Shown here: one piece after another, positions 37,087-56,126 of the stretch | Layout of the letters: every line of letters begins with the position of its first letter | How positions within the stretch are numbered: position 1 is the stretch's first letter | From: an uncultured Planctomycetia bacterium | Lineage (GTDB): Bacteria; Omnitrophota; Gorgyraeia; CAYVEO01 | DNA length: 64,000 nt | Direction of reading: 5' to 3' | Assembly (NCBI GenBank): GCA_964449965.1 | Contig: CAYVEO010000006.1 | Span: forward strand, 308 to 64,307 | Translations under genes and position numbers: made by a program | The notes under the pieces: model-generated | Told to the model about the DNA's origin: nothing | Seen by the model: the letters and a program-made list of their open reading frames with translations, nothing else | The model's database searches: none

Positions 37087-38495
37087 AAGATACCATATCT
37101 TCATTATTTGGAAAAATCGGCATATATCTTCCTGCCCGGAAAGGAGAAGGTTTGAGAATCGGCAGGAGGTTCCTTACCTTTCTCGGGATATTATTTTTCC
37201 TGTCAATATTTGGCTTTATTGGACTTTTGGAATACAGCACAAGTCCAACATTCTGTAATTCCTGCCATGTGATGCACCCATATTACAACGCATGGAAGAC
37301 GTCAAGCCATAATTTTGTATCGTGCGTAGATTGTCACTATCCACCCGGACTTACAAAGGAATTCAAGGGTAAGATACAGGCAATCACGCAGGTGGCAAAA
37401 TTCGTGACACGGACATACAGCACCAAACCCTATGCTGAGATAGAGGATTCAAGCTGTCTCAGAAAAGGCTGTCATGAAAAAAGGCTGTTAGAAGGCAAGG
37501 TTACGTTCAAACGCGGTATCCAATTTGACCATAAGCCTCATCTTGTAGGTATGCGAAGAGGCAAGAAATTACGCTGTACCTCCTGCCATTCCCAGATAGT
37601 CCAGGGTCAGCATATTGCGGTTACTGAGGAGGTATGCTTCATCTGCCATTTCAAGGGTGAAAAGAACGGCAGGGAAATAACCCCTGTCGGTGGCTGCCCG
37701 CTCTGCCATGGTGCACCTGAGAAGGAAATAAAAGTTGCAGGGATGAGTTTTAATCACAAGGATTTCGTAGGTAGAGGAGTTGAATGCCAGAAGTGTCACC
37801 TTGATGCTGTCCAGGGAGAAGGCGAAGTTCCCAGGGAGATGTGTCTCACGTGCCATGGCGAACCTGAGAGACTATCTAAGTATGAAGACCATGAATTTAT
37901 CCACGAGAATCATGTAACAAAACATAAGGTGGAATGTTTCCAGTGCCATCTCACTATAAAACATGCTGTCCAGACTACTATCAAACCTCTGGAATATAGC
38001 TGTGATGTCTGTCACCTATCAAAACATGCAGGTGAAAAAGAGATGTATATGGGTAAAGGAGGCAGGGGAGTGGACGATATGCCAAGCCTTATGTTTCTGG
38101 CACAGGTAGACTGTGTGGCATGCCACATCAATCCTGGAGAGGAATTACCTGCTACGCACTTTGCAGGTAAAACCTATAAGGCTACCGGCGCTGCATGTTT
38201 TGGATGCCATGGCAAGGGCTACGCAGAGATGTTAGATAGTTGGAAAATTAGTATTCAGGAATCATTGGATGAGTTAGGACCTATTTTAGAAAAGGCAAGA
38301 GGATTGGTTCAATATTTAAATAAAGATGACTCTAAGTATAAAGAAGTATCCAGACTATTAGAGGATGCAGAATATAACTATAATTTTGTCAAGTTTGGAA
38401 AAGGTATCCATAACGTCTCTTATGCAGACTCATTGATAGAGGTATCTAAGAACAATGCCAGGAATATTATATCTATTATTTCTGAACAAAGGTGA
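37080..38495 (+). CDS. NapC/NirT-like membrane-anchored multiheme c-type cytochrome (11 CxxCH)
   Basis: An N-terminal TM followed immediately by CNSCHVMH and CVDCH, as in the NapC/NrfH/CymA family. I counted 11 CxxCH motifs. Confidence 0.75.
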   Translation: MVKDTISSLFGKIGIYLPARKGEGLRIGRRFLTFLGILFFLSIFGFIGLLEYSTSPTFCNSCHVMHPYYNAWKTSSHNFVSCVDCHYPPGLTKEFKGKIQAITQVAKFVTRTYSTKPYAEIEDSSCLRKGCHEKRLLEGKVTFKRGIQFDHKPHLVGMRRGKKLRCTSCHSQIVQGQHIAVTEEVCFICHFKGEKNGREITPVGGCPLCHGAPEKEIKVAGMSFNHKDFVGRGVECQKCHLDAVQGEGEVPREMCLTCHGEPERLSKYEDHEFIHENHVTKHKVECFQCHLTIKHAVQTTIKPLEYSCDVCHLSKHAGEKEMYMGKGGRGVDDMPSLMFLAQVDCVACHINPGEELPATHFAGKTYKATGAACFGCHGKGYAEMLDSWKISIQESLDELGPILEKARGLVQYLNKDDSKYKEVSRLLEDAEYNYNFVKFGKGIHNVSYADSLIEVSKNNARNIISIISEQR

Positions 38496-38899
38496 AAGAT
38501 ATGAATCGTCAATCCGAAAAAAGGTTATTAGTAGTAGATGATGAAGACCTACTAAGAAACTCTCTCGCCAAACTTCTTGCAATGAGAGGATATTCTGTCT
38601 TATCAGCTGCCGATGGCAACGAGGCGCTCAAATTAATTAAAGAAAATATGTTTCAATTGGTAATCACAGACCTTAAGATGCCTGGCATGAACGGTATGGA
38701 ACTTATCCATGAGGTTCGGAAATTGTCACCGGATACAAAGGTAGTGGTTATTACCGCCCATGGTGAGTGGAATACCTATCTTGAGGCTATGGAAAGAGGG
38801 GCGTTTGCATATCTTAATAAGCCTATCAATACGGGCGAGTTGTTTTCTACGATTAAAAGGGCATTGTTAGAAGGTGAAGGAAAAAATAAATTTACATAG
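38492..38899 (+). CDS. single-domain response regulator (CheY-like receiver)
   Basis: RLLVVDDE, the DLKMPGMNG phospho-acceptor region and a conserved Lys region. No output domain. Confidence 0.85.
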   Translation: MKDMNRQSEKRLLVVDDEDLLRNSLAKLLAMRGYSVLSAADGNEALKLIKENMFQLVITDLKMPGMNGMELIHEVRKLSPDTKVVVITAHGEWNTYLEAMERGAFAYLNKPINTGELFSTIKRALLEGEGKNKFT

Positions 38900-38948
38900 G
38901 GACAGAAAATAATAGACAGGGATGGTTTTTGGTGATAAAATATATATT

Positions 38949-39878
38949 ATGAATACAATAAAAAGAGTAATTGAAATATTACTGATATTCTTATTCGGAA
39001 CGGTTTTCTGTGGATGCGGAGAGCAGGAGAAGGCATTAAAAATAAAGTTTAAGGAAATAGACACATCCACCGGCCAGAAATCGTTAGATAGGGAACAGGG
39101 AGTTTTACGACTCGCCATCTCTTCTATGATATCACCGCGTGAAACAATTCACTGTTATCAGGATATATTTAATTATGTTGGCGAGAAACTAAACCGAAAG
39201 ATAAAAATAGTCCAGAAAGAGTCCTATGGAGAGACCAACGAACTTCTTCGTCAGGGAGAAGTTGACGTAGCGATGGTCTGCAGCGGCGCATATGTGGAGG
39301 CGCATGCCTCTTATGGCGCCGAACTCCTGTCGGCTCCCAAGCCACTCAGTGACAGGACATATTGTTCATACATCATCGTCCACAGAGACAGCCAGATAAA
39401 TTCAATTGAAGAGTTAAAGGGCAAGACATTTGCTTTCACTGACTCCCTGTCTAATACCGGGAGGCTTTATCCTGTATGGTTGCTTTCCCAGAAAGGATAT
39501 AAGCCTGAGACTTATTTTGCAAGATACATCTATTCAGGCAGTCATGATAATTCAATCCGTGCTGTCAGCGATGGTTTAATTGACGGGGCGGCAGTAGATT
39601 CTCTCGTATTTCTTTATATGAATACCAATCAGCCTGATGTTGTATCTCTCACCAGGGTAATAGCAGTATCACCTGTTTTTGGACTTCCTCCCTTAATTGT
39701 CCATCCCAGGATGGATGTTGAGTTAAAAAAGATTTTGCAGGAAATTCTGTTGAATATGCACAGCGATGAAAAAGGGAAGGTTCTACTTAGCAGGATAAAA
39801 ATAGAACGGTTTATTATTCCACAGGATATGGATTATGACCCTATAAGAGAAATGAAGAAGGCAGTGGGGTATGAATAA
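38949..39878 (+). CDS. periplasmic PhnD/SsuA-type (phosphonate-binding-like, AioX/ArxX-like) solute-binding lipoprotein (ORF-track start 38922)
   Basis: Lipobox FCGCG. LRLAISSMISP...ETNELLRQGEVDVAMVCSGAYVEA...GKTFAFTDSLSNTG...DGAAVDSLVF matches the PhnD-like type 2 periplasmic binding fold. Immediately upstream of the kinase and sigma-54 regulator. Confidence 0.65.
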   Translation: MNTIKRVIEILLIFLFGTVFCGCGEQEKALKIKFKEIDTSTGQKSLDREQGVLRLAISSMISPRETIHCYQDIFNYVGEKLNRKIKIVQKESYGETNELLRQGEVDVAMVCSGAYVEAHASYGAELLSAPKPLSDRTYCSYIIVHRDSQINSIEELKGKTFAFTDSLSNTGRLYPVWLLSQKGYKPETYFARYIYSGSHDNSIRAVSDGLIDGAAVDSLVFLYMNTNQPDVVSLTRVIAVSPVFGLPPLIVHPRMDVELKKILQEILLNMHSDEKGKVLLSRIKIERFIIPQDMDYDPIREMKKAVGYE

Positions 39879-41367
39879 AAAAAAGATAGAGAATGAATCA
39901 CTGAAGGTGCGGCCTATCTCCAGTTTGAAGTTCCGTATTCTGACAGGTGTCATAGGATTGGTTCTGCTTCCGGGAATAGTGGCGATTGTTATAGCACGGG
40001 GCAGACTCGGGTCCGCACTGGAAAAAGAATTGGTAGAACGCGGAGTAGCCATTACACGTACCGTGGCAGTCCGTAGTACAAAACCGGTTCTTACCACTGA
40101 TTTGTTTACATTGCATGAACTTATCAGAAATATTATTGACAGTAACAAAGACGTTAGATATGTGATAATCTACTACCCTGAAGAACAAATTTTAATCCAT
40201 TCATTTAAAAAAGGTATTCCTAAAGGATTATTGGAGGCTAATTATATACCAGAGGGGAAAGAATTTCACCATGTTTTGTTAGAGACAGAAGAGGGTAGTA
40301 TCCGGGATGTTATAGTTCCGCTCTGGGATAAGGGTAAGGGTGTAGTCAGGGTGGGTATGTCAGAACGGAGAATCAATCACCTCCTTTCCGGTGTTACCTA
40401 TCAAATGATTGGAGTCATAGGTCTGGTTTTATTGCTCGGTATAAGCGGGGCATACATTTTAACGACCATACTCACACGCCGGCTCTTCAACCTGGTAGAT
40501 ATGGCTGCAGCAGTTGGAAAAGGTGACCTTGATGCCAAAGCACCGCAAGAGAGCAATGATGAGGTAGGAAGTCTGACATCAGCGTTTAATTCTATGGTAG
40601 AAGACCTCAAACGCCACATTACCGAACAGAAGAAGATGCAGAGTCAGTTATTTCATTCAGGTAAATTAGCAGCGATGGGGGAATTAGCCAGTTGTGTTGC
40701 TCACGAGATTAACAACCCGCTTAGTTCTATAGCAGTTTGTGCTGAATCCCTTTTAGAACGGTTGTCTCAGGGTGCATTAAACTGCTGTCTTTCTGAGAGA
40801 GAAGAATGGACAGAGTATTTAAAGAGTATAGAGAAAGAAATTCATAGATGCAAGAAAATTACAACAGCCCTTCTCAGTCTATCAAATCTGAAAGAGCCGC
40901 AGATTGCACTAATTGACATAAACCAGTTACTTGAGAACATGCTACTTTTAGTAAAGTACCAGGCTGACCGCACAGGGAAGAAAATAATAATTAAACTCGG
41001 TTCAGAGTTGCCGCTTGTCCTGGCTGATGGTGACAGTCTCCAGCAGGTATTTTTAAATCTTATGATAAACGCATTAGACCATACAAACGGCGGAGGTAAG
41101 ATAGATATTTCCACACGTATCACCCGGAGAGAGGATAAACCCTGGGTTGAGGTTGTATTAGCAGACAATGGATGCGGAATTCCCAGGGAAAATCTGGATA
41201 AAATCTTTCAGCCATTTTTTACCACAAAGAAAGACGGTACTGGCAGCGGATTAGGATTGTCCATCTCTAAACGTATTGTTGAAGAACACAATGGGCAAAT
41301 TGTTGTGACGAGTCAACTGAATAAAGGTTCTGTTTTTTCTGTCTATTTACCACTGGAGAAAGATTAG
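39871..41367 (+). CDS. sensor histidine kinase (two TM helices, periplasmic domain of about 130 aa, HAMP, HisKA, HATPase_c)
   Basis: H-box ELASCVAHEINNPL. N/G boxes (LMINALDHT, DNGCGIP, GSGLGLSI). Confidence 0.85.
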   Translation: MNKKKIENESLKVRPISSLKFRILTGVIGLVLLPGIVAIVIARGRLGSALEKELVERGVAITRTVAVRSTKPVLTTDLFTLHELIRNIIDSNKDVRYVIIYYPEEQILIHSFKKGIPKGLLEANYIPEGKEFHHVLLETEEGSIRDVIVPLWDKGKGVVRVGMSERRINHLLSGVTYQMIGVIGLVLLLGISGAYILTTILTRRLFNLVDMAAAVGKGDLDAKAPQESNDEVGSLTSAFNSMVEDLKRHITEQKKMQSQLFHSGKLAAMGELASCVAHEINNPLSSIAVCAESLLERLSQGALNCCLSEREEWTEYLKSIEKEIHRCKKITTALLSLSNLKEPQIALIDINQLLENMLLLVKYQADRTGKKIIIKLGSELPLVLADGDSLQQVFLNLMINALDHTNGGGKIDISTRITRREDKPWVEVVLADNGCGIPRENLDKIFQPFFTTKKDGTGSGLGLSISKRIVEEHNGQIVVTSQLNKGSVFSVYLPLEKD

Positions 41368-42720
41368 ATGAATACTAAGATAAATCTGCTCATAGTTGAT
41401 GATGAAGAGACCCTTCGCCTGCATTTGAAAAAGGAGTTCCTGCGTAAGGACTACGAGGTCCATGAAGCAGGAGAAGGGCAGGCTGCTTTAAACATACTTA
41501 AAGAACATCATATAGATGTGGTTTTATTAGACCTCGTTATGCCAGGGTTAAGCGGTCTTGATGCATTAAAAGAGATTAAGGCAAATTATCCTCTCGTAGA
41601 GGTCATCGTCCTTACAGGAAATGCAACGATTGACACCGCTATCGCCTCTATGAAATTAGGCGCTTATGATTATCTGATGAAACCCTACAACATTGCGGAG
41701 TTATCCATGATTATAGAGCGGGCTCACAATCATGCCCTTCTTTCCAGAGATAGCCAGCGGTTACAGCACGAGTTGGCACGCCAGGCTAAGTTTGAAGACT
41801 TTATTCATGGAGATGAGAAAATGAAGTCAGTCTTTAAATTGATAGAAAAGGTGGCGCCGACTAATTCCACAGTCTTATTATACGGTGAGACAGGGACAGG
41901 AAAAGAACTCGCTGCCAAGTCTATTCACAAGAACAGTAATAGAAAAGAAAATTCTTTTATAGCAGTTGACTGCGGGGCTTTACAGGATACGTTGTTGGAA
42001 AGCGAGTTGTTCGGGCATGAACGCGGGGCGTTTACCGGAGCAATAAGGGATAAACAGGGGTTAATTGAAGTAGCAGACAGCGGAACACTTTTCCTGGATG
42101 AAATCGGCGATATCTCTCCTGCGATGCAGGTCAAACTCCTCCGATTCTTAGAATCAGGCGAGTACCGTATGGTGGGCAGTACCAGAGTTTTGAAAATAGA
42201 TGTGCGGATTATCGCCGCTACAAATCGGAATCTGGAAAGAATAGTGAAGGAGGGCAGATTCCGTGAAGACCTCTATTACCGGCTGAACGTTGTTAAGATA
42301 GAGATTCCGCCATTAAGAGAAAGAAAAGATGACATTATGCCTCTGGCAGAGCATTTTCTCAAAAAATATAATTCATCACTTGGAAGACATATTAAAGGTA
42401 TTTCTAAAGATGCGGAAGAGAAACTGTTAAGTTATGCCTGGCCAGGAAATGTTCGGGAACTTGAGAATGCCATTGAACGGGTCTCCATTCTTTGTGATAG
42501 TGACTGGATTACGATAGAAGACCTGCCTTTTCTTACCCCTAAAGGTACTCTGAATATAGAAAAAGGCAGTCTTGACTCTATGCCCCTTTCTGAATTGGAG
42601 AAAATGCACATTATTAATGTCCTTAAATCCTGTGATGGCAACAAGACCAGGGCTGCAGGTATCTTAGGTATTGAAGTCCGCACCCTTTACAATAAACTGA
42701 AAACTTACGATGTAACATAG
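41368..42720 (+). CDS. sigma-54-dependent response regulator (NtrC family)
   Basis: REC domain (LLIVDDEE, DVVLLDLVMPG). AAA+ domain with GETGTGKE, GAFTGA and ESELFGHERGAFTGA. C-terminal HTH. Confidence 0.9.
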   Translation: MNTKINLLIVDDEETLRLHLKKEFLRKDYEVHEAGEGQAALNILKEHHIDVVLLDLVMPGLSGLDALKEIKANYPLVEVIVLTGNATIDTAIASMKLGAYDYLMKPYNIAELSMIIERAHNHALLSRDSQRLQHELARQAKFEDFIHGDEKMKSVFKLIEKVAPTNSTVLLYGETGTGKELAAKSIHKNSNRKENSFIAVDCGALQDTLLESELFGHERGAFTGAIRDKQGLIEVADSGTLFLDEIGDISPAMQVKLLRFLESGEYRMVGSTRVLKIDVRIIAATNRNLERIVKEGRFREDLYYRLNVVKIEIPPLRERKDDIMPLAEHFLKKYNSSLGRHIKGISKDAEEKLLSYAWPGNVRELENAIERVSILCDSDWITIEDLPFLTPKGTLNIEKGSLDSMPLSELEKMHIINVLKSCDGNKTRAAGILGIEVRTLYNKLKTYDVT

Positions 42721-42868
42721 AGATGTTCTTAATACTGTGAAAAAAATTCCGTGTGTGTGAAAAAAATTCATGGTTTTGTTCCCACTGTTAATAACCTGCA
42801 TCCACATAAGACAATCTTAACATATTTAAATTTAATCAGTTACAAAAAATATAAGGTTTTTACGTTCT

Positions 42869-42886
42869 TTGGCATGAATTATGCTT
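42869..42886 (+). promoter_or_regulatory. sigma-54 promoter TTGGCATGAATTATGCTT
   Basis: TGGCAT-N5-ATGCT with GG/GC 12 nt apart. Predicted start about 42896, a 27-nt leader with a GAGGAG RBS before the ATG at 42923. Confidence 0.6.
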
Positions 42887-42922
42887 ATATATTGACTAAT
42901 AGTCATTGCGAGGAGTGCCAGA

Positions 42923-44233
42923 TTGATGAATATTAATTTTAAATTGTGGATTATTATTTTGACGATGCTTGTCCTGTGCACAGGCGGTTGGGCAGATGAT
43001 TTTAATATCCACGGTTATTTAGATACAAAATACCGGGTTAGGTGGAGCGAGAATGAAACTGACCAGGATATTTATGAATATCTCTCCATATATGCGGGAG
43101 ATGAAACAACTGATAAGGTAAGCGCCTCAATATATGGAAGGGTGTCAGGAGACATAGACGGAAGGCGTGAACCAGACGCATTCTCTGAATTCAGGGAAAT
43201 CACGGATACTTACAATGATAATATTAATGGCAGGTTGTATCATGCATATCTTACGATAAGGGAATTGGGAACTCTATCTAAGGTCCGGTTTGGCAGACAG
43301 GAAGTCTATAGCGGCGAGACGCTGTATTTTGACGGCGTAAAACTTGACAGTAAGGAAATGTGGGAATTCTTATCTGTCTCATTATACGGAGGTGTGCCTG
43401 TGCACCTGTATGAATCTCCTTCGTCAGGTGATTACCTCTGGGGAAGCGGTATAGAGGTCAAACCCATGGAGGGGACTTTATTGAGATTGGATTCCATATA
43501 CGTTGAAGATGATAGTGATGAATGGGGAGACCACAACGATGAACTCTTTATCTTAAGTCTCTGGCAGGATATTACAAAGAATGCTAAGATATACGGTAAA
43601 TATTCTTTCCTGGAAAAAAAGGAACGTGATGCCCAGTTAGGATGTTTTATTGATGTCCCTGAACACCGCCTGACAATAGATGGAAGTTACTTCAGGCAAT
43701 TAGAAGAGTTAAGGGATTTCAGTCTGGAATTTTCACCTTACTATCCAGTAGCAGGAAGTTATCTACCGTTTCACCAGTATGATGTGAACGTGAATAAGCG
43801 GCTCTGTGATAATTTCGGGGTTGGTGCAGGCGCCACAATCAGGGAATTGATAGAGGCTGCTCAGGAGACAACTTATAACCATGCATTTCAGAGATACTAT
43901 CTGAGCGGCTCAATATATGATTTGCCAATCAAAGGGCTTAATCTTACAATAACTCTGGATGACTGGGAGACCAGCACTGATGATATTAGAACCGCTGGAA
44001 TAGATGGGGAATACGTCTTAAAGAAAGGATGGAAACTTAAAGCAGGCAGTTACTATTCATTATACAAATATGATTATTATACCGGAGAGGAAAATGACGA
44101 TGTCCGGACAGCATACGGTGAAATTAGAATAAACCTTACTAAAAACGTAGATTGGAAACTTAGATACGAGGCTGAGGATGACGATTTTAACGTCTATCAC
44201 AAGGTGGAGACAAGTGTCAAATACAATTTTTAA
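42923..44233 (+). CDS. predicted outer-membrane beta-barrel (porin-like) protein, paralog of the 31029 gene
   Basis: Signal peptide LWIIILTMLVLCTGGWA. C-terminal ...KYNF. Paralogous to 31029-32342. Confidence 0.5.
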   Translation: MMNINFKLWIIILTMLVLCTGGWADDFNIHGYLDTKYRVRWSENETDQDIYEYLSIYAGDETTDKVSASIYGRVSGDIDGRREPDAFSEFREITDTYNDNINGRLYHAYLTIRELGTLSKVRFGRQEVYSGETLYFDGVKLDSKEMWEFLSVSLYGGVPVHLYESPSSGDYLWGSGIEVKPMEGTLLRLDSIYVEDDSDEWGDHNDELFILSLWQDITKNAKIYGKYSFLEKKERDAQLGCFIDVPEHRLTIDGSYFRQLEELRDFSLEFSPYYPVAGSYLPFHQYDVNVNKRLCDNFGVGAGATIRELIEAAQETTYNHAFQRYYLSGSIYDLPIKGLNLTITLDDWETSTDDIRTAGIDGEYVLKKGWKLKAGSYYSLYKYDYYTGEENDDVRTAYGEIRINLTKNVDWKLRYEAEDDDFNVYHKVETSVKYNF

Positions 44234-45050
44234 ACCTATTTTACCTATAATATTCTTAGCGTTACTCGTGGCAGGATGTAAAGAGGAAGGGCTGAATTTC
44301 ATCCATAACAACCATTTAGAACGCGGGTTAGAGTGTCCTACCTGTCATATACAAACTGAAGATTTACCGTCTCTGCCAGATGAAGACATATGTCGGACAT
44401 GCCATGAAATAGACAGGAACAATCCGTCTGACAAATGCAGATTGTGCCACCGGGGAAAAGAAGAGAAATCAAAACCGCGTGATAGGAAAAACTATGCAGA
44501 CTTGCAGTTCTCGCATAAGAACCATTTAGAAAGAGAAATTAAGTGTGAAGAGTGCCACGGGACAGCAAAAGACGGATATTCTATCCCTGTGATGGAAGAC
44601 TGCATAAGATGCCATTCACAGATAGAACAAAAGATAGACTGTTCTAAATGCCACATGAAACTTAAAAAGGATGAAAGACCCCAGAACCATGATTATGACT
44701 GGAAGACAAGGCATGGCAAGGAGATAACATTAGAAGGCGGTTCTCCGGAAAATCAAAGATGTTACATTTGCCATAACCAGGCGAGTTGCGATACATGCCA
44801 TAAGGACGAGAAGCCCCAGAACCATACAAACCAGTGGAGATTAAGAGGACATCAGGTGATGGGCAGGATTAACAGGTCTCAATGTGCAGCATGTCATCGG
44901 CAGGACTTCTGTGTTAGTTGTCACAGTGAGGCTCCTGCTATACCCAATAACAGTTCGCACCGCCCGGGCAGGTCATGCAGTTTGTGCCACGTCCGGCTCT
45001 CGCACAGCGTTACAGATGAAACAGGCTGCACACGGTGTCATGCGAATTAA
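44178..45050 (+). CDS. lipoprotein multiheme c-type cytochrome (12 CxxCH)
   Basis: Lipobox LLVAGC. I counted 12 CxxCH motifs. The true start is uncertain (the ORF overlaps the upstream gene by 56 nt). Confidence 0.75.
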   Translation: MTILTSITRWRQVSNTIFKPILPIIFLALLVAGCKEEGLNFIHNNHLERGLECPTCHIQTEDLPSLPDEDICRTCHEIDRNNPSDKCRLCHRGKEEKSKPRDRKNYADLQFSHKNHLEREIKCEECHGTAKDGYSIPVMEDCIRCHSQIEQKIDCSKCHMKLKKDERPQNHDYDWKTRHGKEITLEGGSPENQRCYICHNQASCDTCHKDEKPQNHTNQWRLRGHQVMGRINRSQCAACHRQDFCVSCHSEAPAIPNNSSHRPGRSCSLCHVRLSHSVTDETGCTRCHAN

Positions 45051-45065
45051 AAGGAGGAAGTGAAA

Positions 45066-45467: not shown

Positions 45468-45481
45468 TGGAGGGTAAGTTT

Positions 45482-48421: not shown

Positions 48422-48437
48422 AAGGGAGGATTGAAAT

Positions 48438-49001
48438 ATGGCTCAACTCGGATGGAGTATAGATTTGAAAAAATGTATAGGCTGTCATGCTTGTGCTGTT
48501 GCTTGTAAGGCAGAGATGAATACTGCACCACAGACCTCGCCACTTGAGGTTGATGATGTTACTGCAGAGGCAGTAAACTACAGGCGGGTGTCATATTTAG
48601 AAAGCGGTTCTTACCCTGATGTAGCACGCACGTTCGTAACTATGTCATGCCAGCACTGTTATTATCCGTCTTGCATGAAGGCGTGTCCTGTGGGTGCAAT
48701 TACTAAACGCGCCTCTGACGGCATAGTGCTCATAGACTATGATAAATGTATAGGATGTAAGTATTGTATCTGGGCATGCCCTTATGGCGCTCCGCAGTTT
48801 AATGAGACAACTAAGAAGGTGGAAAAATGCACTTTCTGTTCCCACCGTATAGATGCAGGTTTAAAACCGGCGTGCGTTACGACATGTGCAGGGCGTGCAC
48901 TGAACTACGAGACATTTACCCAGTCAAACAGCGGGCAGAACGCACCTTCAGGATTCGCCGACCCGGACCTTACGACACCTGCGGTTCGTTTCAGCACATA
49001 A
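48438..49001 (+). CDS. four-cluster 4Fe-4S electron-transfer subunit (PsrB/DmsB/ArrB-like)
   Basis: CIGCHACAVAC, CQHCYYPSCMKACP, CIGCKYCIWACP and CTFCSHR...CVTTCAGRA ferredoxin motifs. Confidence 0.85.
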   Translation: MAQLGWSIDLKKCIGCHACAVACKAEMNTAPQTSPLEVDDVTAEAVNYRRVSYLESGSYPDVARTFVTMSCQHCYYPSCMKACPVGAITKRASDGIVLIDYDKCIGCKYCIWACPYGAPQFNETTKKVEKCTFCSHRIDAGLKPACVTTCAGRALNYETFTQSNSGQNAPSGFADPDLTTPAVRFST

Positions 49002-49017
49002 ATGAATTACGTATAAA

Positions 49018-49040
49018 GTAGGACAGGCGTCCCGCCTGTC
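49018..49040. repeat. perfect palindromic hairpin GTAGGACAGGCGTCCCGCCTGTC after the FeS-subunit stop (terminator-like); copy of the 27261-27283 element
   Basis: GACAGGCG/CGCCTGTC is an exact reverse complement. The same 23-nt motif (2 mismatches) occurs downstream of the 24797 gene. Confidence 0.5.
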
Positions 49041-49064
49041 TATTGAATAAAGTGAGCCTAATTT

Positions 49065-49718
49065 ATGAGAGTTGAGTCTGGAATATCTTCTAACGCAGTT
49101 GCAGTCTGGCGCAGGGATGTATATGGGATTTTATCTTTTCTTTACCACCGTCAGCCTACAGATGAAGACCTGGACAGAATTTTAAGTCTTTCAAAATTTC
49201 AGGACGGAACTCCGCGTGTTTGCAACTTGTTAGGATGCTGTGCCCAGTGGGCAAAAGAAGAAAATTCCCGGGATATACGCCAGGATTTTAATGACCTCTT
49301 TATGGTGCCTGCCAGCCATTATGTAACGCCTTATGAATCAGTCTATACTGACACCTCAGTAGATGCTAAAGGACGTCCGGCTCATCTGACATTTGGTCCC
49401 TCAACACGAAAAGTTCAGGAATTTTATAAGAAGATAGGTTTACAGATATCTACAGATTACACTGAATTACCTGACTATATCGGCCTGGAGTTAGCATGTA
49501 TGGAATACCTGTGTTCAAGAGAATCAGAATTAGACTCTGGCAGTAAGGAGATACATAATGTCCGTTGTTATCAAAAACAATTTTTAACTGAACACATGAT
49601 TTGCTGGGTTTCTCATCTTTGTAAGAGAATAAAAAATAACGCACAAACCAGGTTCTACCGGGACCTGGCAGAGGCTACTGAGGAGTTTGTCATACACGAT
49701 GAACATAGATTCGGTTGA
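49065..49718 (+). CDS. TorD/DmsD-family redox enzyme maturation chaperone
   Basis: LDRILSL...FNDLFMVP...PYESVYTD...ELPDYIGLELACMEYL matches the TorD-like chaperone family that accompanies MopB enzymes. Confidence 0.6.
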   Translation: MRVESGISSNAVAVWRRDVYGILSFLYHRQPTDEDLDRILSLSKFQDGTPRVCNLLGCCAQWAKEENSRDIRQDFNDLFMVPASHYVTPYESVYTDTSVDAKGRPAHLTFGPSTRKVQEFYKKIGLQISTDYTELPDYIGLELACMEYLCSRESELDSGSKEIHNVRCYQKQFLTEHMICWVSHLCKRIKNNAQTRFYRDLAEATEEFVIHDEHRFG

Positions 49719-50754
49719 TAAATATTTTAATAACCAGACACTTGCTTTTGAGCCGAGACTCTGCCCTTCAGTCCGCAGCCCTAAGTCTATCTGCTACCTA
49801 TGTGTTGATAACTGTCCCTCTAAATCATTGACTTTGAAAAACCATGAGTTAGTTATTGGTGAAACCTGTCAATCTTGCGGTATATGCACATCTCTATGCC
49901 CTACAGGTGCTCTGGAATTAAAGAAGGGAAAAGAGAGTAAGGTAATTAATAGAGTAAAGACCTATTTAGATGAACAACCGGCAAAAATCGTCCGTTTCAA
50001 ATGCCATAAAGATATTAAATATGAAGATGCTGTTATTTTACCCTGTGTATATAGCCTAACCGAGAATATATTTTTAGCAGCATTCTTATATGGTGCAAAA
50101 CATCTGGAACTTAAACTTTCAAATTGTTCTAATTGTCCATCAGGTCCATCGGATTTTTCACTGAGAAAAAGTATTGCAACTGCACAATCTATACTTAACT
50201 GGCTCGGCGTTCCTAACGTAGAAATAAAAACTGTAACTAATTTTAGCGTTTGTGAGTCTGTCACTGAAAAGGGTTTCTCACCCGGTCGCCGTAATTTTCT
50301 GGCGGACATTAGAGAAGAGATGGGACACGTGATAAGCGCTGTCTTACCTCAATCCAGTGATAATTTTCATCCTCCAGGACCAAAGAGAGAACGCCTGTTA
50401 AACATTTTAAGGAAGATAACGGAAAGAATTGGACAGGATAACCATACAATCAATTACGAAGAAAATTTACCATTCACTATGGTAGATATAGATGATAATT
50501 GTCTGGGATGCAATGTCTGTTCAACCTTATGTCCTACATCTGCCTTACAAAGGACTGTAGACAAGGGCTCAGTCAGCATTAAATTCCTTACTCGTTTTTG
50601 TGTTAAGTGCGGATTATGCCATGAGGTTTGTCTACCTAAGGCTATTAAACCGAGCAAGACCCTTCCTCCTCGGACATCGATGACGTCTGATTACCATGAA
50701 TTAATCAGACTGGAAAAAGAGAAAGAGTTTTCAGTTAGACCAAAAAATGTTTGA
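49687..50754 (+). CDS. multi-cluster ferredoxin-like FeS protein (additional FeS subunit)
   Basis: CYLCVDNCP, CQSCGICTSLCP, CLGCNVCSTLCP and CVKCGLCHEVC ferredoxin motifs. No TM helices detected. Confidence 0.6.
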   Translation: MSYTMNIDSVDKYFNNQTLAFEPRLCPSVRSPKSICYLCVDNCPSKSLTLKNHELVIGETCQSCGICTSLCPTGALELKKGKESKVINRVKTYLDEQPAKIVRFKCHKDIKYEDAVILPCVYSLTENIFLAAFLYGAKHLELKLSNCSNCPSGPSDFSLRKSIATAQSILNWLGVPNVEIKTVTNFSVCESVTEKGFSPGRRNFLADIREEMGHVISAVLPQSSDNFHPPGPKRERLLNILRKITERIGQDNHTINYEENLPFTMVDIDDNCLGCNVCSTLCPTSALQRTVDKGSVSIKFLTRFCVKCGLCHEVCLPKAIKPSKTLPPRTSMTSDYHELIRLEKEKEFSVRPKNV

Positions 50755-50780
50755 CAATGGTTATTGACCTATGATATAAT
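50751..50780 (+). promoter_or_regulatory. near-consensus sigma-70 promoter (TTGACA, 18 nt, TATAAT) upstream of the moaA leader
   Basis: TTGACA at 50751-50756 overlaps the stop codon of the upstream gene. TATAAT at 50775-50780. Confidence 0.5.
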
Positions 50781-50794
50781 TATTTTAACATAAT

Positions 50795-50955: not shown

Positions 50956-51942
50956 ATGAGAGACCGTTATAATCGCCAGATAGATACGTTGAGGATTTCA
51001 GTAACTGACAGGTGTAACCTGAGGTGCACCTATTGTATGCCTGAAAAGGGTGTTATTGCAAAGGACCCTGATGAGATACTCAGTTTTGAAGAGATAGAAA
51101 AGGTAGTTCGAATAGTCGCTACACTCGGCATTACTAAAATAAAGATAACCGGCGGGGAGCCATTAGCAAGGAAGGGTATTGCTCATCTTATAGAAATGTT
51201 ATCAGGAGTTAAAGGAATTAATGACATATCCATGACCAGTAATGGTATTTCCCTTGCAAAATTTGTTAGGGATTTAAAGGATTCAGGACTCAACAGGGTT
51301 AATATTAGTTTAGATAGTCTGAATAAGGATAGATTTACCTCTATAACACGCGGGGGAGATATAAGGTATGTCTGGCAGGGTATTGAAGAGGCAATTAAGG
51401 CAGGGCTTGAGCCTGTTAAAATAAACGTGGTCATGATAAAGGGTTTTAACGATGATGAAATTGTAGATTTTGCAGGATTGACTTATAATATGCATATCCA
51501 TATAAGGTTCATAGAATTTATGCCAATGTTAAATGGTCTATTATGGGATGAGGAAAAGTTTATATCCAATGAGGACGTTAAAAAGCAGTGCGAGACATTA
51601 GGAGAACTTTTCCAGGCTGGTAAAATTCCTGGTAGCGGCCCTGCAGTCTATTATCGCCTGAAAGGTGCCAGGGGTAGCATCGGGTTTATCAGTCCTCTAT
51701 CTAATAGTTTCTGCACCAATTGTAATCGGTTGAGACTGACCTCAGATGGTAATTTGAGGTTATGCTTACACCATGAAGATAGTCTAAACTTAAAAGAGAT
51801 GTTTCGCAAAGGGTTTAGAGATGAGGAAATTAGTAAAGCAATAGAAGTGGCAATGAATACCAAGCCAAAAGGACACAATCTATGCAGTCCAACAGGTGCA
51901 TTCCATTATTCAAATGGTGCGATGTCATCCATAGGCGGGTAA
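50956..51942 (+). CDS. moaA: GTP 3',8-cyclase MoaA (molybdenum cofactor biosynthesis, radical SAM)
   Basis: LRISVTDRCNLRCTYCMPEKG (CX3CX2C) N-terminal cluster and the C-terminal second cluster region (CTNCNRLRLTSDGNLRLCL). The ORF track starts at 50827. M33 (50923) and M44 (50956) are the plausible starts. Confidence 0.85.
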   Translation: MRDRYNRQIDTLRISVTDRCNLRCTYCMPEKGVIAKDPDEILSFEEIEKVVRIVATLGITKIKITGGEPLARKGIAHLIEMLSGVKGINDISMTSNGISLAKFVRDLKDSGLNRVNISLDSLNKDRFTSITRGGDIRYVWQGIEEAIKAGLEPVKINVVMIKGFNDDEIVDFAGLTYNMHIHIRFIEFMPMLNGLLWDEEKFISNEDVKKQCETLGELFQAGKIPGSGPAVYYRLKGARGSIGFISPLSNSFCTNCNRLRLTSDGNLRLCLHHEDSLNLKEMFRKGFRDEEISKAIEVAMNTKPKGHNLCSPTGAFHYSNGAMSSIGG

Positions 51943-53117
51943 AATATTACAGATTTGATAGAACAGAACTCGCTGGTTCATTCGGGGACCTGGGGACTTT
52001 ACTGCCTCTTACGTTTGCCCTTGTTTCTATAAACGGGCTCAACCCTACTATCCTGTTTTTATTGGTAGGGATGTTTTATATATTTGCAGGGTTATATTAT
52101 CGGCTCCCCATATCTGTCCAGCCATTGAAATTGGTAGCCATCCTTGCTATATCACTGAAACTCATCCCTTCAGTAATTGCAGCATCCGGGATATTGATAG
52201 GTCTTATCCTCCTTTTCCTTGTATCTACTGGATTGATTGATAAACTCTCTAAATTATTCTGTAAATCCACTCTAAGAGGAGTCCAGTTAGGGGTAGGGCT
52301 TTTATTAATTGTAAAAGGTGCAACACTCGTTATGTCTCATGAATTGTTTTTTGATAAAACCAATTTTTCTACTGCGGCACAAGGCATGTCTGGATTCATA
52401 GGTTTAGGTATTGCATTTCTAACAATATCCCTAATTTTTCTGCTGAGAAAAAAAGACAGGTTTCCTGTTGCCTTAATAGCAGTATGTATGGGAATTATAT
52501 GTGGTCTTGTTTTGAAGGCAAAATACTCTCTGACTATCCCATCCCCATCTAATTTTAATCCTCTTCTCATCAGCCTTCCATCTCAGAAAGATTTCCTTGA
52601 TGCGTTGATACTCTTGGTAATTCCCCAGATTCCGATTACCCTTGGGAATGCAGGTTATGCAGCCAGTGACCTTGCAAAGAGATATTATGGTGAAAGGGCG
52701 TCCCGTGTTACTCCACGGAAACTTTCCGCCAGCATGGGGCTATTCAATATAATATCAGGACTCTGCGGCAGTATGCCTGTATGCCACGGTTCAGGAGGAA
52801 TTGCTGCCCATTACAGGTTCGGGGCACGGACAGGCGGGGCAAATATTATGTTAGGGGCAATATTTCTTGCAATAGCCCTGATATTCAAGGATTCGGTAAG
52901 TTACGTAATAACCCTGATTCCTGTGCCTGTGTTAGGGGTTCTGCTTTTCTTTGCAGGGATAGAGATGCTGAAATTAATCCTTGACCTTGATGGCAAGAAG
53001 GAATATTGCATAGCCATAAGTATAGCAGGCATTGCCCTCTTAACCAGTAATCTGACATTAGCCATAGCATGTGGAATCTTTACGAAGTTCATCTTGAACC
53101 GCATTTCATGGATGTAA
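51882..53117 (+). CDS. MOT1-type (SulP-related) molybdate transporter
   Basis: ELAGSFGDLGTLLPLTFALVSINGLNPTILFLLVGMFYIFAGLYYRLPISVQPLKLVAILAIS closely parallels the ELSGAVGDLGT...P.PVQPMK signature of MOT1 molybdate transporters. About 10 TM helices. Confidence 0.6.
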   Translation: MQSNRCIPLFKWCDVIHRRVKYYRFDRTELAGSFGDLGTLLPLTFALVSINGLNPTILFLLVGMFYIFAGLYYRLPISVQPLKLVAILAISLKLIPSVIAASGILIGLILLFLVSTGLIDKLSKLFCKSTLRGVQLGVGLLLIVKGATLVMSHELFFDKTNFSTAAQGMSGFIGLGIAFLTISLIFLLRKKDRFPVALIAVCMGIICGLVLKAKYSLTIPSPSNFNPLLISLPSQKDFLDALILLVIPQIPITLGNAGYAASDLAKRYYGERASRVTPRKLSASMGLFNIISGLCGSMPVCHGSGGIAAHYRFGARTGGANIMLGAIFLAIALIFKDSVSYVITLIPVPVLGVLLFFAGIEMLKLILDLDGKKEYCIAISIAGIALLTSNLTLAIACGIFTKFILNRISWM

Positions 53118-53119
53118 GT

Positions 53120-54160
53120 TCAAAAATACCTTTTTCTGAATTTTAATGCTACATTCACAAGACTTATTAAAACAGGCACCTCTACCAATGGTCCGATTAC
53201 CGCAGCAAATGCTGCCCTTGAGTTTATTCCAAAAACTGCGACTGCAACCGCAATCGCAAGTTCAAAATTGTTGCTGGCAGCTGTAAAAGAAAGCGTTGCT
53301 GTCTTTGCATAGTCCGCACCGAATTTCTTACCCATGAAAAACGAGAGCAGGAACATTACTACAAAATAAATTAAGAGAGGTATTGCTATTCTCGCTACAT
53401 CAAGAGGTATTTTTACAATGTATTCTCCTTTTAATGAAAACATGACAAGGATTGTGAATAAAAGTGCTATAAGTGTTATCGGGCTTATAGTTGGAATAAA
53501 TTTTTTATCGTACCACTCTTTGGTTTTTATTTTTACAAGCGTGAAACGGGTTATTATTCCCGCAAGAAAAGGAATGCCGAGATAAACAAATACGCTCATG
53601 GCAATTTGCCTGATAGTGATATCTACAACGGTACCTTTTAATCCGAACCAGCCCGGTAAAACTGTAATAAAAACCCATGCATACACAGAATAAAACAAAA
53701 CCTGAAAGATAGAATTAAAAGCGACCAGTCCGGCACAGTACTCTGTATCGCCGCCGGCGAGTTCGTTCCAGACAATCACCATTGCAATGCACCGTGCGAG
53801 TCCAATCATAATCAAACCAACCATATATTCAGGATAATTCACGAGGAAGATAATTGCTAAGAAAAACATCAAAACCGGACCTATTAGCCAGTTCTGGACA
53901 AGCGAAAGTACGAGGACTTTGACATCACGGAAAACGTCTCCGAGTTCCTCGTATTTCACTTTTGCGAGCGGGGGGTACATCATCAGAATCAGACCTATTG
54001 CTATGGGAATGTTTGTAGTTCCAACCTGAAATGTGTTCCAGAAACCAACAATCCCGGGATAGAAATATCCACCCAGGACGCCTGCTGCCATTGCCAGAAA
54101 AATCCACAAGGTTAAGAATCTGTCTAAAAAAGAGAGTCTTTTTACAATACCTTCTGCCAT
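53120..54160 (-). CDS. acr3: arsenite efflux permease, ACR3 family
   Basis: [25 protein letters not shown]...[30 protein letters not shown] is the conserved ACR3 N-terminal region. 10 TM helices. Confidence 0.9.
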
Positions 54161-54166
54161 TTTATA

Positions 54167-54523
54167 TTACTTTCCCGAACATAATTTTTCTAACGGCTGA
54201 GCAAGACACTTTTTCATACTGGTTAAGTCTTTTCTAAATAAATCGTACCTTTTTGTGAAGTATTCTCTCAAATATTTATGGATGGATTTTTCAAGTTCAT
54301 TCCTGGGTTTAGATAAGGAATAGAATATCCATAAGCCTTTTCGCCTGTCCTGCACAAGCCCTGCATTCTTCAGTACGGTCAGATGGCGCGATACCATTGC
54401 CTGCGAAAACCCTAAAACCCATTGAATCTGGCAGACACAAAGTTCTTTCCTTGATAATAAAACCGTTATGCGAAGCCGTGTTTCATCAGACAATGCCTTA
54501 AATAAATTCAATTCTTCTTTCAT
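54167..54523 (-). CDS. arsR: ArsR/SmtB-family metalloregulator
   Basis: FKALSDETRLRITVLLSRKELCVCQIQWVLGFSQAMVSRHLTVLKNAGLV contains the ELCVC metal-binding motif and the winged HTH of ArsR. Directly upstream of acr3 on the same strand. Confidence 0.85.
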   Translation of the reverse strand: MKEELNLFKALSDETRLRITVLLSRKELCVCQIQWVLGFSQAMVSRHLTVLKNAGLVQDRRKGLWIFYSLSKPRNELEKSIHKYLREYFTKRYDLFRKDLTSMKKCLAQPLEKLCSGK

Positions 54524-55987: not shown

Positions 55988-56126
55988 ATAAATGATGCCG
56001 CTAAAATATTAGGCATAAGCAGAAAAACCTTGTGGGAAAAGATGAAGTTATATAGATTGGGCTGATAGTACAAACACCTCTTTAGAAAAAAATTTACGTC
56101 AGATTAATTCGCTAAAAATTTTTGGC

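Follow-up and report, generated by a model that had tools for sequence, protein, structure and literature searches.

Gene content of the locus

The window analysed here, a stretch of 64,000 nt from an uncultured groundwater bacterium, carries sensory, cytochrome and molybdoenzyme genes followed by moaA, a MOT1 gene and an arsR-acr3 unit (Table 1). All genes listed in an initial annotation of this DNA are present at or near the positions it gave, and their families were confirmed in Pfam/NCBIfam searches. Its description of arsR and acr3 as a divergent pair did not hold, since they form a two-gene minus-strand unit, convergent with the plus-strand genes. ArsR is an arsenite-responsive repressor and ACR3 an arsenite efflux pump; MoaA and the MOT1 transporter supply cofactor. 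We found no NrfD/PsrC gene at the reductase locus, and the genes around that of the enzyme include those for cytochromes and an outer-membrane barrel, both points as originally described.

Table 1. Features of the locus, with positions in the window
Feature	Position	Strand	Evidence
Neighbouring three-component porin-cytochrome cluster, own sigma-54 site TGGCATgaaaaTTGCT at 30998	30998-36293	+	
Barrel of neighbouring cluster	31029-32342	+	
14-CXXCH cytochrome of neighbouring cluster	32355-33380	+	
937-aa MtrC-like lipoprotein of neighbouring cluster	33480-36293	+	
NapC/NirT/NrfH-like membrane-anchored cytochrome	37080-38495	+	11 CXXCH motifs; Pfam Cytochrom_NNT 44 bits
Stand-alone receiver (REC) protein	38492-38899	+	Pfam Response_reg 110 bits
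ArrX-type periplasmic binding protein, possible lipoprotein	38922-39878	+	Pfam Phosphonate-bd 210 bits
Sensor histidine kinase	39871-41367	+	Pfam sCache_3_2 + HAMP + HisKA + HATPase
NtrC-type sigma-54 response regulator	41368-42720	+	REC + Sigma54_activat 236 bits + HTH_8
Two exact GTGAAAAAAATTC copies, candidate activator-binding site	42737-42769	+	Sequence
Sigma-54 (-24/-12) promoter TGGCATgaattATGCT	42870-42885	+	Sequence pattern
Outer-membrane beta-barrel	42923-44233	+	AlphaFold model and Foldseek; no Pfam match
12-haem lipoprotein cytochrome, lipobox	44178-45050	+	12 CXXCH motifs; Pfam c7/c3 families
Three-haem lipoprotein cytochrome, lipobox, poly-Gly/Ser linker	45060-45467	+	3 CXXCH motifs
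MopB catalytic subunit	45482-48421	+	Tat signal, FS0 cysteine motif, Cys Mo ligand
Four-cluster FeS electron-transfer subunit	48438-49001	+	Pfam Fer4_11; NCBIfam DmsB/TtrB/ArrB-like matches
TorD/NarJ-family maturation chaperone	49065-49718	+	Pfam Nitrate_red_del 87 bits
Cytoplasmic polyferredoxin	49687-50754	+	Pfam Fer4 families
Sigma-70-type promoter before moaA	50751-50780	+	12/12 matches, TG extension
MoaA	50827-51942	+	Pfam
MOT1-family molybdate transporter (MFS_MOT1)	51882-53117	+	Pfam
ACR3	53120-54160	-	TIGR00832 acr3, 462 bits vs cutoff 283
ArsR, ELCVCQ motif	54167-54523	-	HTH_5

Sensing genes and promoters

The periplasmic binder scores 211-213 bits against ArrX (PDB 6x6b), 140 against ArxX, 107-108 against AioX, and no more than 71 against PhnD, PtxB and HtxB. 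The seven ligand-pocket positions compared are all conserved, six with identical residues (Y88, C106, Y131, S161, H192 and D210) and S163 as Thr; the signalling loop, SSMISPxET, resembles that of ArrX and is unlike that of AioX. Score and pocket comparisons had been proposed in the initial annotation; the scores set the binder apart from phosphonate and phosphite binders. The Kd of ArrX for arsenate is 1 uM (PMC5908839); the protein also binds phosphate, weakly. Judged by its sequence, the PhnD-like protein is a sensor of arsenate of the ArrX type. The earlier proposal that binder, kinase and sigma-54 regulator make up an arsenic-oxyanion sensing module is supported, the best solved relative of the binder being ArrX, well ahead of the others. 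The kinase, whose gene adjoins that of the binder in many related loci, is predicted to act in an ArrS/AioS-like role. The regulator is of the sigma-54 type, like AioR and ArxR of arsenite-oxidase systems and in contrast to the ArrR of Chrysiogenes. The NapC-like gene ends just inside the start of the REC gene, and a REC protein occupies the same position in a syntenic relative (L088) that has no arsenic module.

The predicted sigma-54 promoter is present, with correct GG-N10-GC spacing and two departures from the consensus TGGCAC-N5-TTGCW. It lies 37 nt upstream of a GAGGAG ribosome-binding site and TTG start, and sites of the same pattern stand upstream of the operon in ~22 related loci. The GTGAAAAAAATTC copies, 20 bp apart and ~100-130 bp upstream of the promoter, are the only exact ones in the window; if two mismatches are permitted, their number does not exceed chance. 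What had been read as a single sigma-54 regulon keeps its promoter before 42923, but the REC, binder, kinase and regulator genes are all upstream of this promoter and so not behind it. moaA-MOT1 is probably also outside the sigma-54 transcript, because a perfect sigma-70-type promoter of its own (TTGACA-18-TATAAT) precedes it.

The probable reductase, its cytochromes and their relatives

The best curated NCBIfam model for the catalytic subunit is TtrA, at 360 bits far below the cutoff of 1750, followed by PhsA (216 bits), while the ArrA score is 129 bits (cutoff 1600). These scores rule out both a true TtrA and an ArrA/ArxA, and of the Arr/Arx-like arsenic molybdoenzyme first suggested, the arsenic reading stands but the family does not. 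By sequence comparison the protein belongs to the Ttr-like arsenate-reductase group, whose members in Pyrobaculum, Anaeromyxobacter PSR-1, Geobacter OR-1 and Melioribacter are either induced by arsenate or active; SrdA (selenate) falls in the same superclade as TtrA. Its Gly-Arg motif, reported to tell arsenic enzymes and true TtrA apart (PMC12949373), aligns to ArrA R165 and stands 28 residues before the Mo-Cys, the same spacing as in ArrA, although ArrA Tyr166 and Lys198 are not kept (Ser and His are aligned instead). This motif and HT[SN]ICExSHH are essentially invariant across 82 relatives, L040 being the one divergent sequence. The enzyme of the Citrobacter arsenic island has both as well; both are altered in TtrA of an E. 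coli plasmid. Homologs lie within arsenic islands of Citrobacter arsenatis plasmids and of Desulfitobacterium hafniense, whose enzyme is 37% identical to ours. The initial annotation would have abandoned the arsenic reading had the catalytic subunit clustered robustly with polysulfide, thiosulfate or tetrathionate reductases and the binder with phosphonate or phosphite binders. The Ttr-like placement goes part of the way to the first of these, but it does not refute the reading, because the group includes described arsenate reductases and the protein carries the Gly-Arg motif. We infer that the enzyme is periplasmic and reduces arsenate. The four-cluster FeS subunit has no signal peptide and is presumably co-exported with it.

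Among the 82 related loci compared, an ArrX-like binder is present in 34, a sigma-54 activator homolog in 32 and ACR3 in 11; ars transport or reductase genes were seen in 13, counting the fetched flanks only, and MoaA and/or MOT1 adjoin the reductase in more than 20. A large clade, mostly of uncultured genomes, has a small lipoprotein cytochrome in place of the NrfD anchor. The cytochrome-type clade has 63% bootstrap support in a neighbour-joining tree built without full-length ArrA, ArxA, SrdA, Pyrobaculum and PSR-1 sequences. In nearly all 65 cytochrome-type loci a cytochrome of 2-4 haems is encoded directly upstream of the MopB gene, and (L/I)xA(L/I)HD..S..Y before haem 1 is common to these small cytochromes. 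The three-haem cytochrome would be the conserved subunit that tethers the reductase and lets electrons in. The polyferredoxin follows the chaperone in about half of the cytochrome-type loci; a NapF-like maturation function is our guess.

The barrel model (AlphaFold, AF2) has ~22-24 strands (pLDDT 86, pTM 0.78), matches only outer-membrane barrels in Foldseek, and ends in ...YNF. The protein is a paralog of the neighbouring cluster's barrel (52% identity), and elsewhere a cytochrome of ~330 aa invariably comes after its homologs. The 12-haem cytochrome, 38% identical to the one after the barrel in L088, is the barrel's probable periplasmic partner. Operons containing an outer-membrane barrel and a 12-13-haem cytochrome were found in the present window and two Planctomycetota MAGs. 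L005 (MopB 58% identical) shares the gene order X-S-R-barrel-multihaem cytochrome-small cytochrome-A-B-D-FeS, despite a G+C content of 63-65% (from related MAG names) against ~42% here. The NapC-like cytochrome scores 63 bits with the NrfH model TIGR03153, below cutoff; its N terminus matches NrfH 2j7a, and close homologs lie beside reductase genes in L003 and L048. It is a candidate quinol dehydrogenase feeding the periplasmic chain.

Probable arsenate respiration and alternative readings

We somewhat favour the reading, drawn from sequence comparisons, that the locus encodes a Ttr-like respiratory arsenate reductase system induced by arsenate. Periplasmic arsenate would be bound by the ArrX-type protein, which would signal through the sCache/HAMP kinase to the NtrC-type activator and so open the sigma-54 promoter. 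The Tat-exported Mo-bisPGD subunit and its four-cluster FeS partner would be matured by the TorD-like chaperone and, in place of an NrfD quinol-oxidising anchor, the three-haem lipoprotein cytochrome would tether and feed the enzyme. In the electron route we infer as most likely, menaquinol would donate electrons by way of the 11-haem NapC/NirT-like protein and periplasmic haems to the three-haem subunit, from which they would pass through the FeS clusters to the Mo site and As(V), with the arsenite product dealt with by ArsR-ACR3. The operon-leading barrel and 12-13-haem cytochrome may link the reductase electrically to the cell exterior.

It is possible, if rather doubtful, that the barrel and 12-haem cytochrome are functionally separate from the reductase and merely co-regulated: arsenate sensing would induce an Fe(III)/Mn(IV)-reducing conduit, dissolution of the host mineral would free sorbed As(V), and a purely periplasmic reductase would respire it. 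The barrel family otherwise always occurs in three-component porin-cytochrome clusters, and most members of the reductase clade have no barrel at all; lineages lacking the barrel have a small lipoprotein cytochrome that shares this linker, so an extracellular location is not required for it. However, the module in the reductase operon comes without the large extracellular MtrC-like cytochrome that makes the other clusters complete, and the recurrence of its gene order with the reductase in L005 and L006, at 56-58% MopB identity, suggests a physical or functional unit.

We think it unlikely that another substrate (tetrathionate, thiosulfate, polysulfide, selenate or antimonate) is reduced and that the nearby arsenic genes are coincidental or serve cross-resistance. 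ACR3 and ArsR do also handle Sb(III). TtrA and PhsA are the top NCBIfam models, the TtrA/SrdA/alternative-Arr clade is catalytically versatile, and in Desulfolithobacter, where TtrAB clusters without TtrC have been noted, TtrBCA-type proteins are the most abundant of those specific to thiosulfate disproportionation. Yet the score is five-fold under the TtrA cutoff, the active-site motifs are unlike those of true TtrA, and the locus has an ArrX-type sensor and no TtrS/TtrR; ArrX showed no binding of tetrathionate, thiosulfate, selenate, sulfate or antimonite. Furthermore, ars genes are ~20-fold enriched over a rough genomic expectation (the background being an estimate), and the arsenic islands with homologs belong to two unrelated cultured lineages.

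Least likely of all is an anaerobic oxidase working in the Arx direction, in which electrons from periplasmic arsenite would leave through the three-haem subunit, 12-haem cytochrome and barrel to an extracellular acceptor (Mn(IV)/Fe(III) oxides or a partner cell): Arr/Arx-type enzymes are reportedly bidirectional (PMC7327174), the activator is of the sigma-54 type as in AioXSR/ArxXSR, the enzyme's wiring includes cytochromes and a porin-cytochrome module in an island rich in extracellular-electron-transfer genes, and 5 of 36 family-linked binders score equally against ArxX and ArrX, but the binder here is nearer the arsenate sensor ArrX (211 bits) than ArxX (140) or AioX (107) and has the ArrX-like loop, the experimentally studied Ttr-like arsenic enzymes are all reductases, and ACR3 efflux nearby fits an arsenite product.

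The initial annotation did not recognise this combination as described. Ttr-like enzymes beside ArrTSR/ArrXSR and ars genes are already published for Melioribacter (PMC5492636), and NapC/NirT-cytochrome-dependent arsenate reductases are known from Shewanella CymA (PMC2762525). The novelty is limited to the wiring, which does look new: neither the small-cytochrome architecture nor the operonic porin-cytochrome module was found in the searchable literature. Cytochrome-wired arsenate respiration with an outer-membrane conduit would bear on the microbial release of arsenic from minerals.

Gene organization and the ArrX-like sensor

All genes listed in the initial annotation were recovered by the ORF map and the Pfam/NCBIfam scans, and its haem counts are borne out by 11, 12, and 3 CXXCH motifs in the NapC-like protein and the two cytochromes of the reductase operon. 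The arsR-acr3 genes, described there as a divergent pair, instead form one minus-strand unit that is convergent with the operon. A single sigma-54 regulon had also been proposed. The reductase operon does follow a good sigma-54 promoter (TGGCATgaattATGCT), with the right GG-N10-GC spacing and with a GAGGAG ribosome-binding site and a start codon after it; however, moaA-MOT1 has its own perfect sigma-70-type promoter, and the sensor genes stand before the sigma-54 promoter, in a row with the NapC-like gene.

Positions of features in the window (strand in brackets where recorded)
Feature	Position	Remark
ResB/CcsA cytochrome-maturation gene pair	4180-6301	near the 1042-aa cytochrome
Multihaem cytochrome, 1042 aa	6749-9877 (+)	21 separate doubled-CXXCH Pfam matches (790 bits), implying ~40 haems
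Second kinase + sigma-54 activator pair	9850-12706
Perfect sigma-54 consensus	14913-14928 (+)	TGGCACggaaaTTGCT
Multihaem cytochrome + NHL-protein cluster	15320-20014
ResB/CcsA cytochrome-maturation gene pair	20011-21605	near the 1042-aa cytochrome
Sigma-54 activator fragment	30561-30860 (+)	99 aa, C-terminal (lid + HTH_8)
14-mer, first copy	30900-30913 (+)	98 bp upstream of first porin-cytochrome promoter
Sigma-54 promoter, first porin-cytochrome cluster	30998
Three-component porin-cytochrome cluster	30998-36293
Split DUF2085 membrane-protein gene	36456-37086 (+)	two overlapping frames (108 and 130 aa)
NapC-like 11-haem protein	37080-38495
Stand-alone REC protein	38492-38899
Binder	38922-39878
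Sensor kinase	from 39871
Sigma-54 activator	from 41368
Sigma-54 promoter, reductase operon	42870-42885	TGGCATgaattATGCT
14-mer, second copy	42901-42914 (+)	between promoter and start codon, overlaps ribosome-binding site
Reductase operon	42923-50754
Outer-membrane barrel	42923-44233
Catalytic subunit	45482-48421
moaA-MOT1 promoter	50751-50780	sigma-70 type
arsR-acr3	53120-54523 (-)
Region beyond arsR	54683-58253	several small unassigned ORFs, G+C down to 35-36%
DUF4143/AAA_14 ATPase gene	54683-55987
IS3-type transposase OrfA-like fragment	57945-58253	resemblance judged by eye

The binder gene adjoins the sensor kinase and response regulator genes, and no phnC or phnE was found in the window region around it. 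When AioX and ArxX were weighed against PhnD, PtxB, and HtxB, the binder fell on the AioX/ArxX/ArrX side, as the initial annotation had expected, with ArrX the top match. Against all solved structures, ArrX scores 213 bits (E = 7e-62), AioX 108, and phosphonate/phosphite binders at most 71; with an ArxX sequence taken from the supplement of PMC5908839, the order is ArrX (211 bits), ArxX (140), and AioX (107). In a HMMER alignment to 6esv, the pocket residues Y88, C106, Y131, S161, H192, and D210 (AioX numbering) are identical and S163 is replaced by Thr; the loop that distinguishes AioX from ArrX has the ArrX form. ArrX is the arsenate-binding sensor of Chrysiogenes arsenatis (arsenate 1 uM, phosphate 150 uM) and showed no binding of arsenite, antimonite, selenate, sulfate, thiosulfate, or tetrathionate (PMC5908839).

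The module shares with AioXSR, ArxXSR, and ArrXSR a periplasmic binder of the PhnD fold with a conserved pocket, a histidine kinase, and a response regulator controlling molybdoenzyme genes, and shares with Aio and Arx a sigma-54 promoter as target. Unlike the CitB/FixJ-like ArrR of Chrysiogenes, the regulator is of the sigma-54 AAA+ type, as are AioR and ArxR. The sensing module is thus a hybrid, combining an ArrX-like binder with an Aio/Arx-style activator; a further difference is the extra stand-alone REC protein encoded upstream. In four Methylomirabilota (NC10) MAG loci (L008, L009, L010, and L033), with acr3, arsR, and arsC directly upstream, the ArrX-like binder and kinase occur with a response regulator of 230-270 aa in place of a sigma-54 activator, so that one reductase module is plugged into differing regulator types.

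The catalytic subunit and its probable link to arsenic

The catalytic subunit carries a Tat signal, the FS0 cysteine motif, and a Cys Mo ligand. Its NCBIfam scores are 360 bits for TtrA (NF011567, in two stretches; cutoff 1750), 216 for PhsA, and 129 for ArrA (NF041714; cutoff 1600); it lies below the TtrA and ArrA cutoffs and is a member of none of the three families. In a PDB search ArrA reaches 110 bits, below PsrA at 135, and the alignment to true TtrA covers only 65% of the query. Together, the NCBIfam ranking and a neighbor-joining tree indicate an enzyme closer to TtrA than to ArrA or PsrA that nonetheless does not belong to true TtrA. In the tree, which is distance-based and from which key reference sequences are absent, it groups with ArrX-linked NrfD-type enzymes, the Citrobacter arsenic-island enzyme, and TtrA, while standing apart from TtrA itself. 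The ArrA score argues against the Arr/Arx-like enzyme suggested earlier; judged by its sequence, the enzyme is in the Ttr-like group instead.

The active site provides a second criterion. A Gly-Arg pair (G203-R204) precedes the Mo ligand Cys232 by 28 residues, a spacing equal to that between R165 and C193 of ArrA, and HMMER aligns the two. This Gly-Arg, in which Arg corresponds to ArrA R165, is reported to occur in all arsenic-metabolizing Arr, Arx, and Ttr-like enzymes and to be missing from true TtrA (PMC12949373). Among the 82 relatives, where L040 is the one divergent sequence, Gly-Arg and the motif HT[SN]ICExSHH are kept, as they are in the Citrobacter arsenic-island enzyme; the bona fide TtrA of an E. 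coli plasmid (L085) departs at both sites. Among the arsenate-binding residues of ArrA from Shewanella ANA-3 (R165, H189, S190, K198, and Y166), the Gly-Arg, the His at -4, and a Thr for Ser at -3 are aligned and conserved; Y166 is replaced by Ser and K198 by His. In published phylogenies TtrA, the selenate reductase SrdA, and the "alternative" arsenate reductase form one versatile clade, beside which lies an unnamed MAG lineage (PMC10100899).

The true tetrathionate reductase TtrRSBCA, of Salmonella and of the E. coli plasmid, supplies the top-scoring curated family model for the catalytic subunit; the window's system agrees with it in size and domain order, and TtrS likewise has a PhnD-like periplasmic domain. 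It differs in its active-site motifs and in its score (360 against 1750 bits), and TtrC, TtrS, and TtrR are missing; the ORF map and the Pfam/NCBIfam scans show no NrfD, TtrS, or TtrR in the locus.

Near-identical protein fragments are labeled Omnitrophota, and the closest full-length relatives (56-65% identity) are labeled Planctomycetota. An anammox origin, suggested at first by base composition (G+C) and the abundance of haem proteins, was dropped in view of the Omnitrophota labels. A scan of one genome per species returned 546 relatives; the best 80 of these and two earlier loci gave 82 loci (1.34 Mb), whose ORFs were scored against the window's proteins and the ars genes of a Citrobacter plasmid. 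An ArrX-like binder lies near the reductase in 34 of the 82 loci (23 of 35 among loci of at least 20 kb), a sigma-54 activator in 32, ars transport or reductase genes in 13, and ACR3 in 11. The ACR3 count is ~20-fold above expectation, assuming one or two ACR3 genes per genome of a few Mb. Out of 36 linked binders, 31 match ArrX best.

Two cultured lineages show the same association. In Citrobacter arsenatis and C. freundii plasmids, arsRDABC is divergent from an FeS-anchor-MopB-chaperone cluster whose MopB has 29.7% identity over 98% of the query, a better coverage than that of true TtrA. In Desulfitobacterium hafniense, arsRDA adjoins ArrX-HK-RR-FeS-NrfD-MopB-TorD; at 37% identity, DCB-2 P0248 of this species is the nearest cultured anchor. 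The D. hafniense contig (L091, 3562-20794) carries, one after the other, two sets each made up of genes for a PhnD-like binder, a kinase, a GerE-type regulator, an FeS protein, and NrfD; the first set serves the Ttr-like enzyme, and ArsR and methyltransferase genes lie between the sets. The Citrobacter arsenatis LY-1 plasmid cluster (L004; NZ_CP037863.1, 10154-15549) has Gly-Arg and HTNICELSHH, and the same FeS-anchor-MopB-chaperone cluster occurs on conjugative IncFII plasmids of Citrobacter, Enterobacter, Salmonella, and E. coli, annotated merely as "molybdopterin-dependent oxidoreductase." It may represent an unrecognized plasmid-borne respiratory arsenate reductase.

The arsenic link drawn by the initial annotation holds up: sensor, active-site motif, gene neighborhoods, and literature are four independent lines that agree, and the arsenic assignment is well supported by them, within a superclade that is catalytically versatile. 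The ArrX-like nature of the sensor makes reduction more likely than oxidation.

Anchor-less reductases and the outer-membrane barrel

The neighbor-joining tree separates two architectures. The NrfD-type clade (17 loci, 100% bootstrap), whose genes run FeS-NrfD-MopB-TorD, includes Desulfobacterota, among them Desulfacinum infernum, and one Methanosarcinales MAG. In the cytochrome-type clade (65 loci, 63% bootstrap), a 2-4-haem cytochrome gene directly precedes the MopB gene, the FeS gene follows it, and no NrfD occurs across the 65 loci. A lipobox and a linker that is Gly-rich or acidic are frequent in the small cytochrome, which shares (L/I)xA(L/I)HD..S..Y before the first haem. In three loci from Gammaproteobacteria MAGs (L016, L019, and L021), the pre-reductase cytochrome is 480-618 aa long, with 5-9 CXXCH motifs and long poly-Asp or Asp-Gly low-complexity linkers before HD..S..Y. 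In two other loci (L003 and L048), the reductase has a homolog of the NapC-like 11-haem protein as its neighbor, which fits a role for this protein as quinol dehydrogenase, by analogy with CymA for Shewanella ArrAB.

Ttr-like arsenate reductases have been documented or proposed in Pyrobaculum aerophilum (PAE1265), Anaeromyxobacter PSR-1 (WP_059435911), and Geobacter OR-1 (WP_041969781), whose likeness to the window's enzyme is drawn from secondary descriptions only, and also in Melioribacter roseus (MROS_1076, with ArrTSR and ars adjacent) and Limisphaera. The window's system resembles these in its Cys ligand, its Gly-Arg, its greater closeness to TtrA than to ArrA, its TorD-like chaperone, its ArrX/ArrT-type binder and two-component system upstream, and the ars genes alongside. 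The described systems, however, are arranged as TtrBCA or TtrABC, with an NrfD-type quinol-oxidizing anchor and the FeS subunit gene first. In the window's locus there is no NrfD, the FeS gene follows the catalytic gene, a small lipoprotein cytochrome gene precedes it, and a barrel and a 12-haem cytochrome are added.

ArrAB of Shewanella ANA-3 is also anchor-less: a soluble periplasmic two-subunit enzyme fed by the NapC/NirT-family quinol dehydrogenase CymA (PMC2762525). Besides the missing membrane anchor, the two enzymes share the GR and H-x-x-x-C active-site context; they belong to separate MopB clades, and the Shewanella enzyme has no dedicated small cytochrome subunit. We know of no ArrXSR system in Shewanella and of no porin-cytochrome genes in its arr operon.

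The barrel protein has no Pfam or NCBIfam match and ends in ...YNF. An AlphaFold model built with 39 homologs (pLDDT 86, pTM 0.78) is a beta-barrel of ~22-24 strands whose structural neighbors are all outer-membrane barrels, with MtrB absent from the top 50 matches. Sequence and fold searches with the 12-haem protein, encoded in the same operon, match c7- and ActA-like chains and not MtrA. The barrel family is rare, the 39 homologs being all that were found. Elsewhere, a ~330-aa cytochrome is always encoded after the barrel, usually followed by a ~940-aa MtrC-like cytochrome, often behind a sigma-54 activator. To judge from these gene orders, barrel and both cytochromes together are a three-component porin-cytochrome conduit, and a cluster of this kind lies upstream of the arsenic genes in the window. 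The window's reductase subclade comprises six loci (100% bootstrap), in three of which (the window and two Planctomycetota MAG loci, L005 and L006) the barrel and a 12-13-haem cytochrome open the operon. L005, from a MAG of very different G+C, has the full order of binder, kinase, activator, barrel, cytochrome, small cytochrome, MopB (58% identity), FeS subunit, chaperone, and polyferredoxin.

We put forward only tentatively, as a reading with rather less than even chances, that here and in a few Planctomycetota relatives a Ttr-like arsenate reductase has a porin-cytochrome module of its own that couples it electrically across the outer membrane. Shewanella DmsEFAB is an extracellular DMSO reductase on an MtrAB-type conduit, with a Ser ligand in DmsA. 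As in DmsEFAB, one operon encodes a barrel, a periplasmic multihaem cytochrome, a Tat-exported DMSO-reductase-family subunit, an FeS subunit, and a chaperone; neither the barrel nor the cytochrome is of a related family, however, the enzyme is Ttr-like with a Cys ligand, there is an extra three-haem lipoprotein, and surface placement is only a possibility. One possibility, by this analogy, is that the complex of three-haem cytochrome, catalytic subunit, and FeS subunit would sit on the cell surface as an arsenic counterpart of DmsEFAB. If so, arsenate could be respired while sorbed to iron minerals, and arsenite kept outside the cell. Alternatively, the conduit could join arsenic redox reactions in the periplasm to donors or acceptors outside the cell. 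That the three-haem cytochrome has a lipobox and a poly-Gly linker was rejected as an argument for surface location, since barrel-less loci of Methylomirabilota, Myxococcota, Desulfurellales, and Nitrospirota have the same features.

TtrAB clusters without TtrC are mentioned in passing in earlier literature. The searchable literature, outside which most subscription journals lie, yielded no description of the anchor-less small-cytochrome architecture and none of an arsenate reductase wired by a porin-cytochrome module or multihaem cytochromes, which is weak evidence of absence. Both this small-cytochrome architecture and the way it is joined to a porin-cytochrome module appear to be novel.

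Genomic setting and implications

A closely related locus (L088; 80-90% protein identity) is syntenic over 24.6-38.9 kb and lacks the entire arsenic module after the REC gene, so the module is a variable insertion in a cytochrome-rich island. Together with the features of the region beyond arsR, this absence hints at an arrival of the module on mobile DNA.

Other parts of the island have also changed. Just upstream of the first porin-cytochrome cluster lies the activator fragment; L088 has an intact kinase and activator at the matching position (79% identity to the fragment), and the window's cluster has kept its sigma-54 promoter and lost its own regulator. The split DUF2085 gene, a single 213-aa gene in L088, reflects either a frameshift mutation or an assembly error. 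A shared activator site was sought between both porin-cytochrome promoters, and only the core CTTTGGCATGAA and one 14-mer were found, at differing relative positions; the repeat GTGAAAAAAATTC shows no enrichment once mismatches are allowed. There is thus no evidence that the arsenate regulator drives the upstream cluster. The 14-mer (AGTCATTGCGAGGA) has exactly two copies in the window, against an expectation of 0.01. Downstream of the second kinase and activator pair, the TGGCACggaaaTTGCT site stands before the multihaem cytochrome and NHL-protein cluster, and the window therefore has three sigma-54-driven cytochrome operons.

Arsenic release into groundwater depends on microbial As(V) reduction, and much As(V) is bound to iron minerals; field surveys count mostly arrA. 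The window's locus is a member of a Ttr-like reductase family that escapes arrA primers and models. Transcript data from paddy soil suggest that Ttr-like genes can exceed arrA in number (PMC11462812). The form that is fed by a cytochrome and has no anchor is widespread among uncultured lineages, which include Methylomirabilota, Planctomycetota, Nitrospinota, Myxococcota, and Acidobacteriota, with many of the genomes from groundwater. In many uncultured groundwater phyla this form may be the chief arsenate reductase, in which case arrA-based surveys would overlook it. Coupling across the outer membrane, if true, would provide a direct molecular route to the respiration of solid-phase arsenate, or would tie arsenic redox chemistry to extracellular electron transfer.
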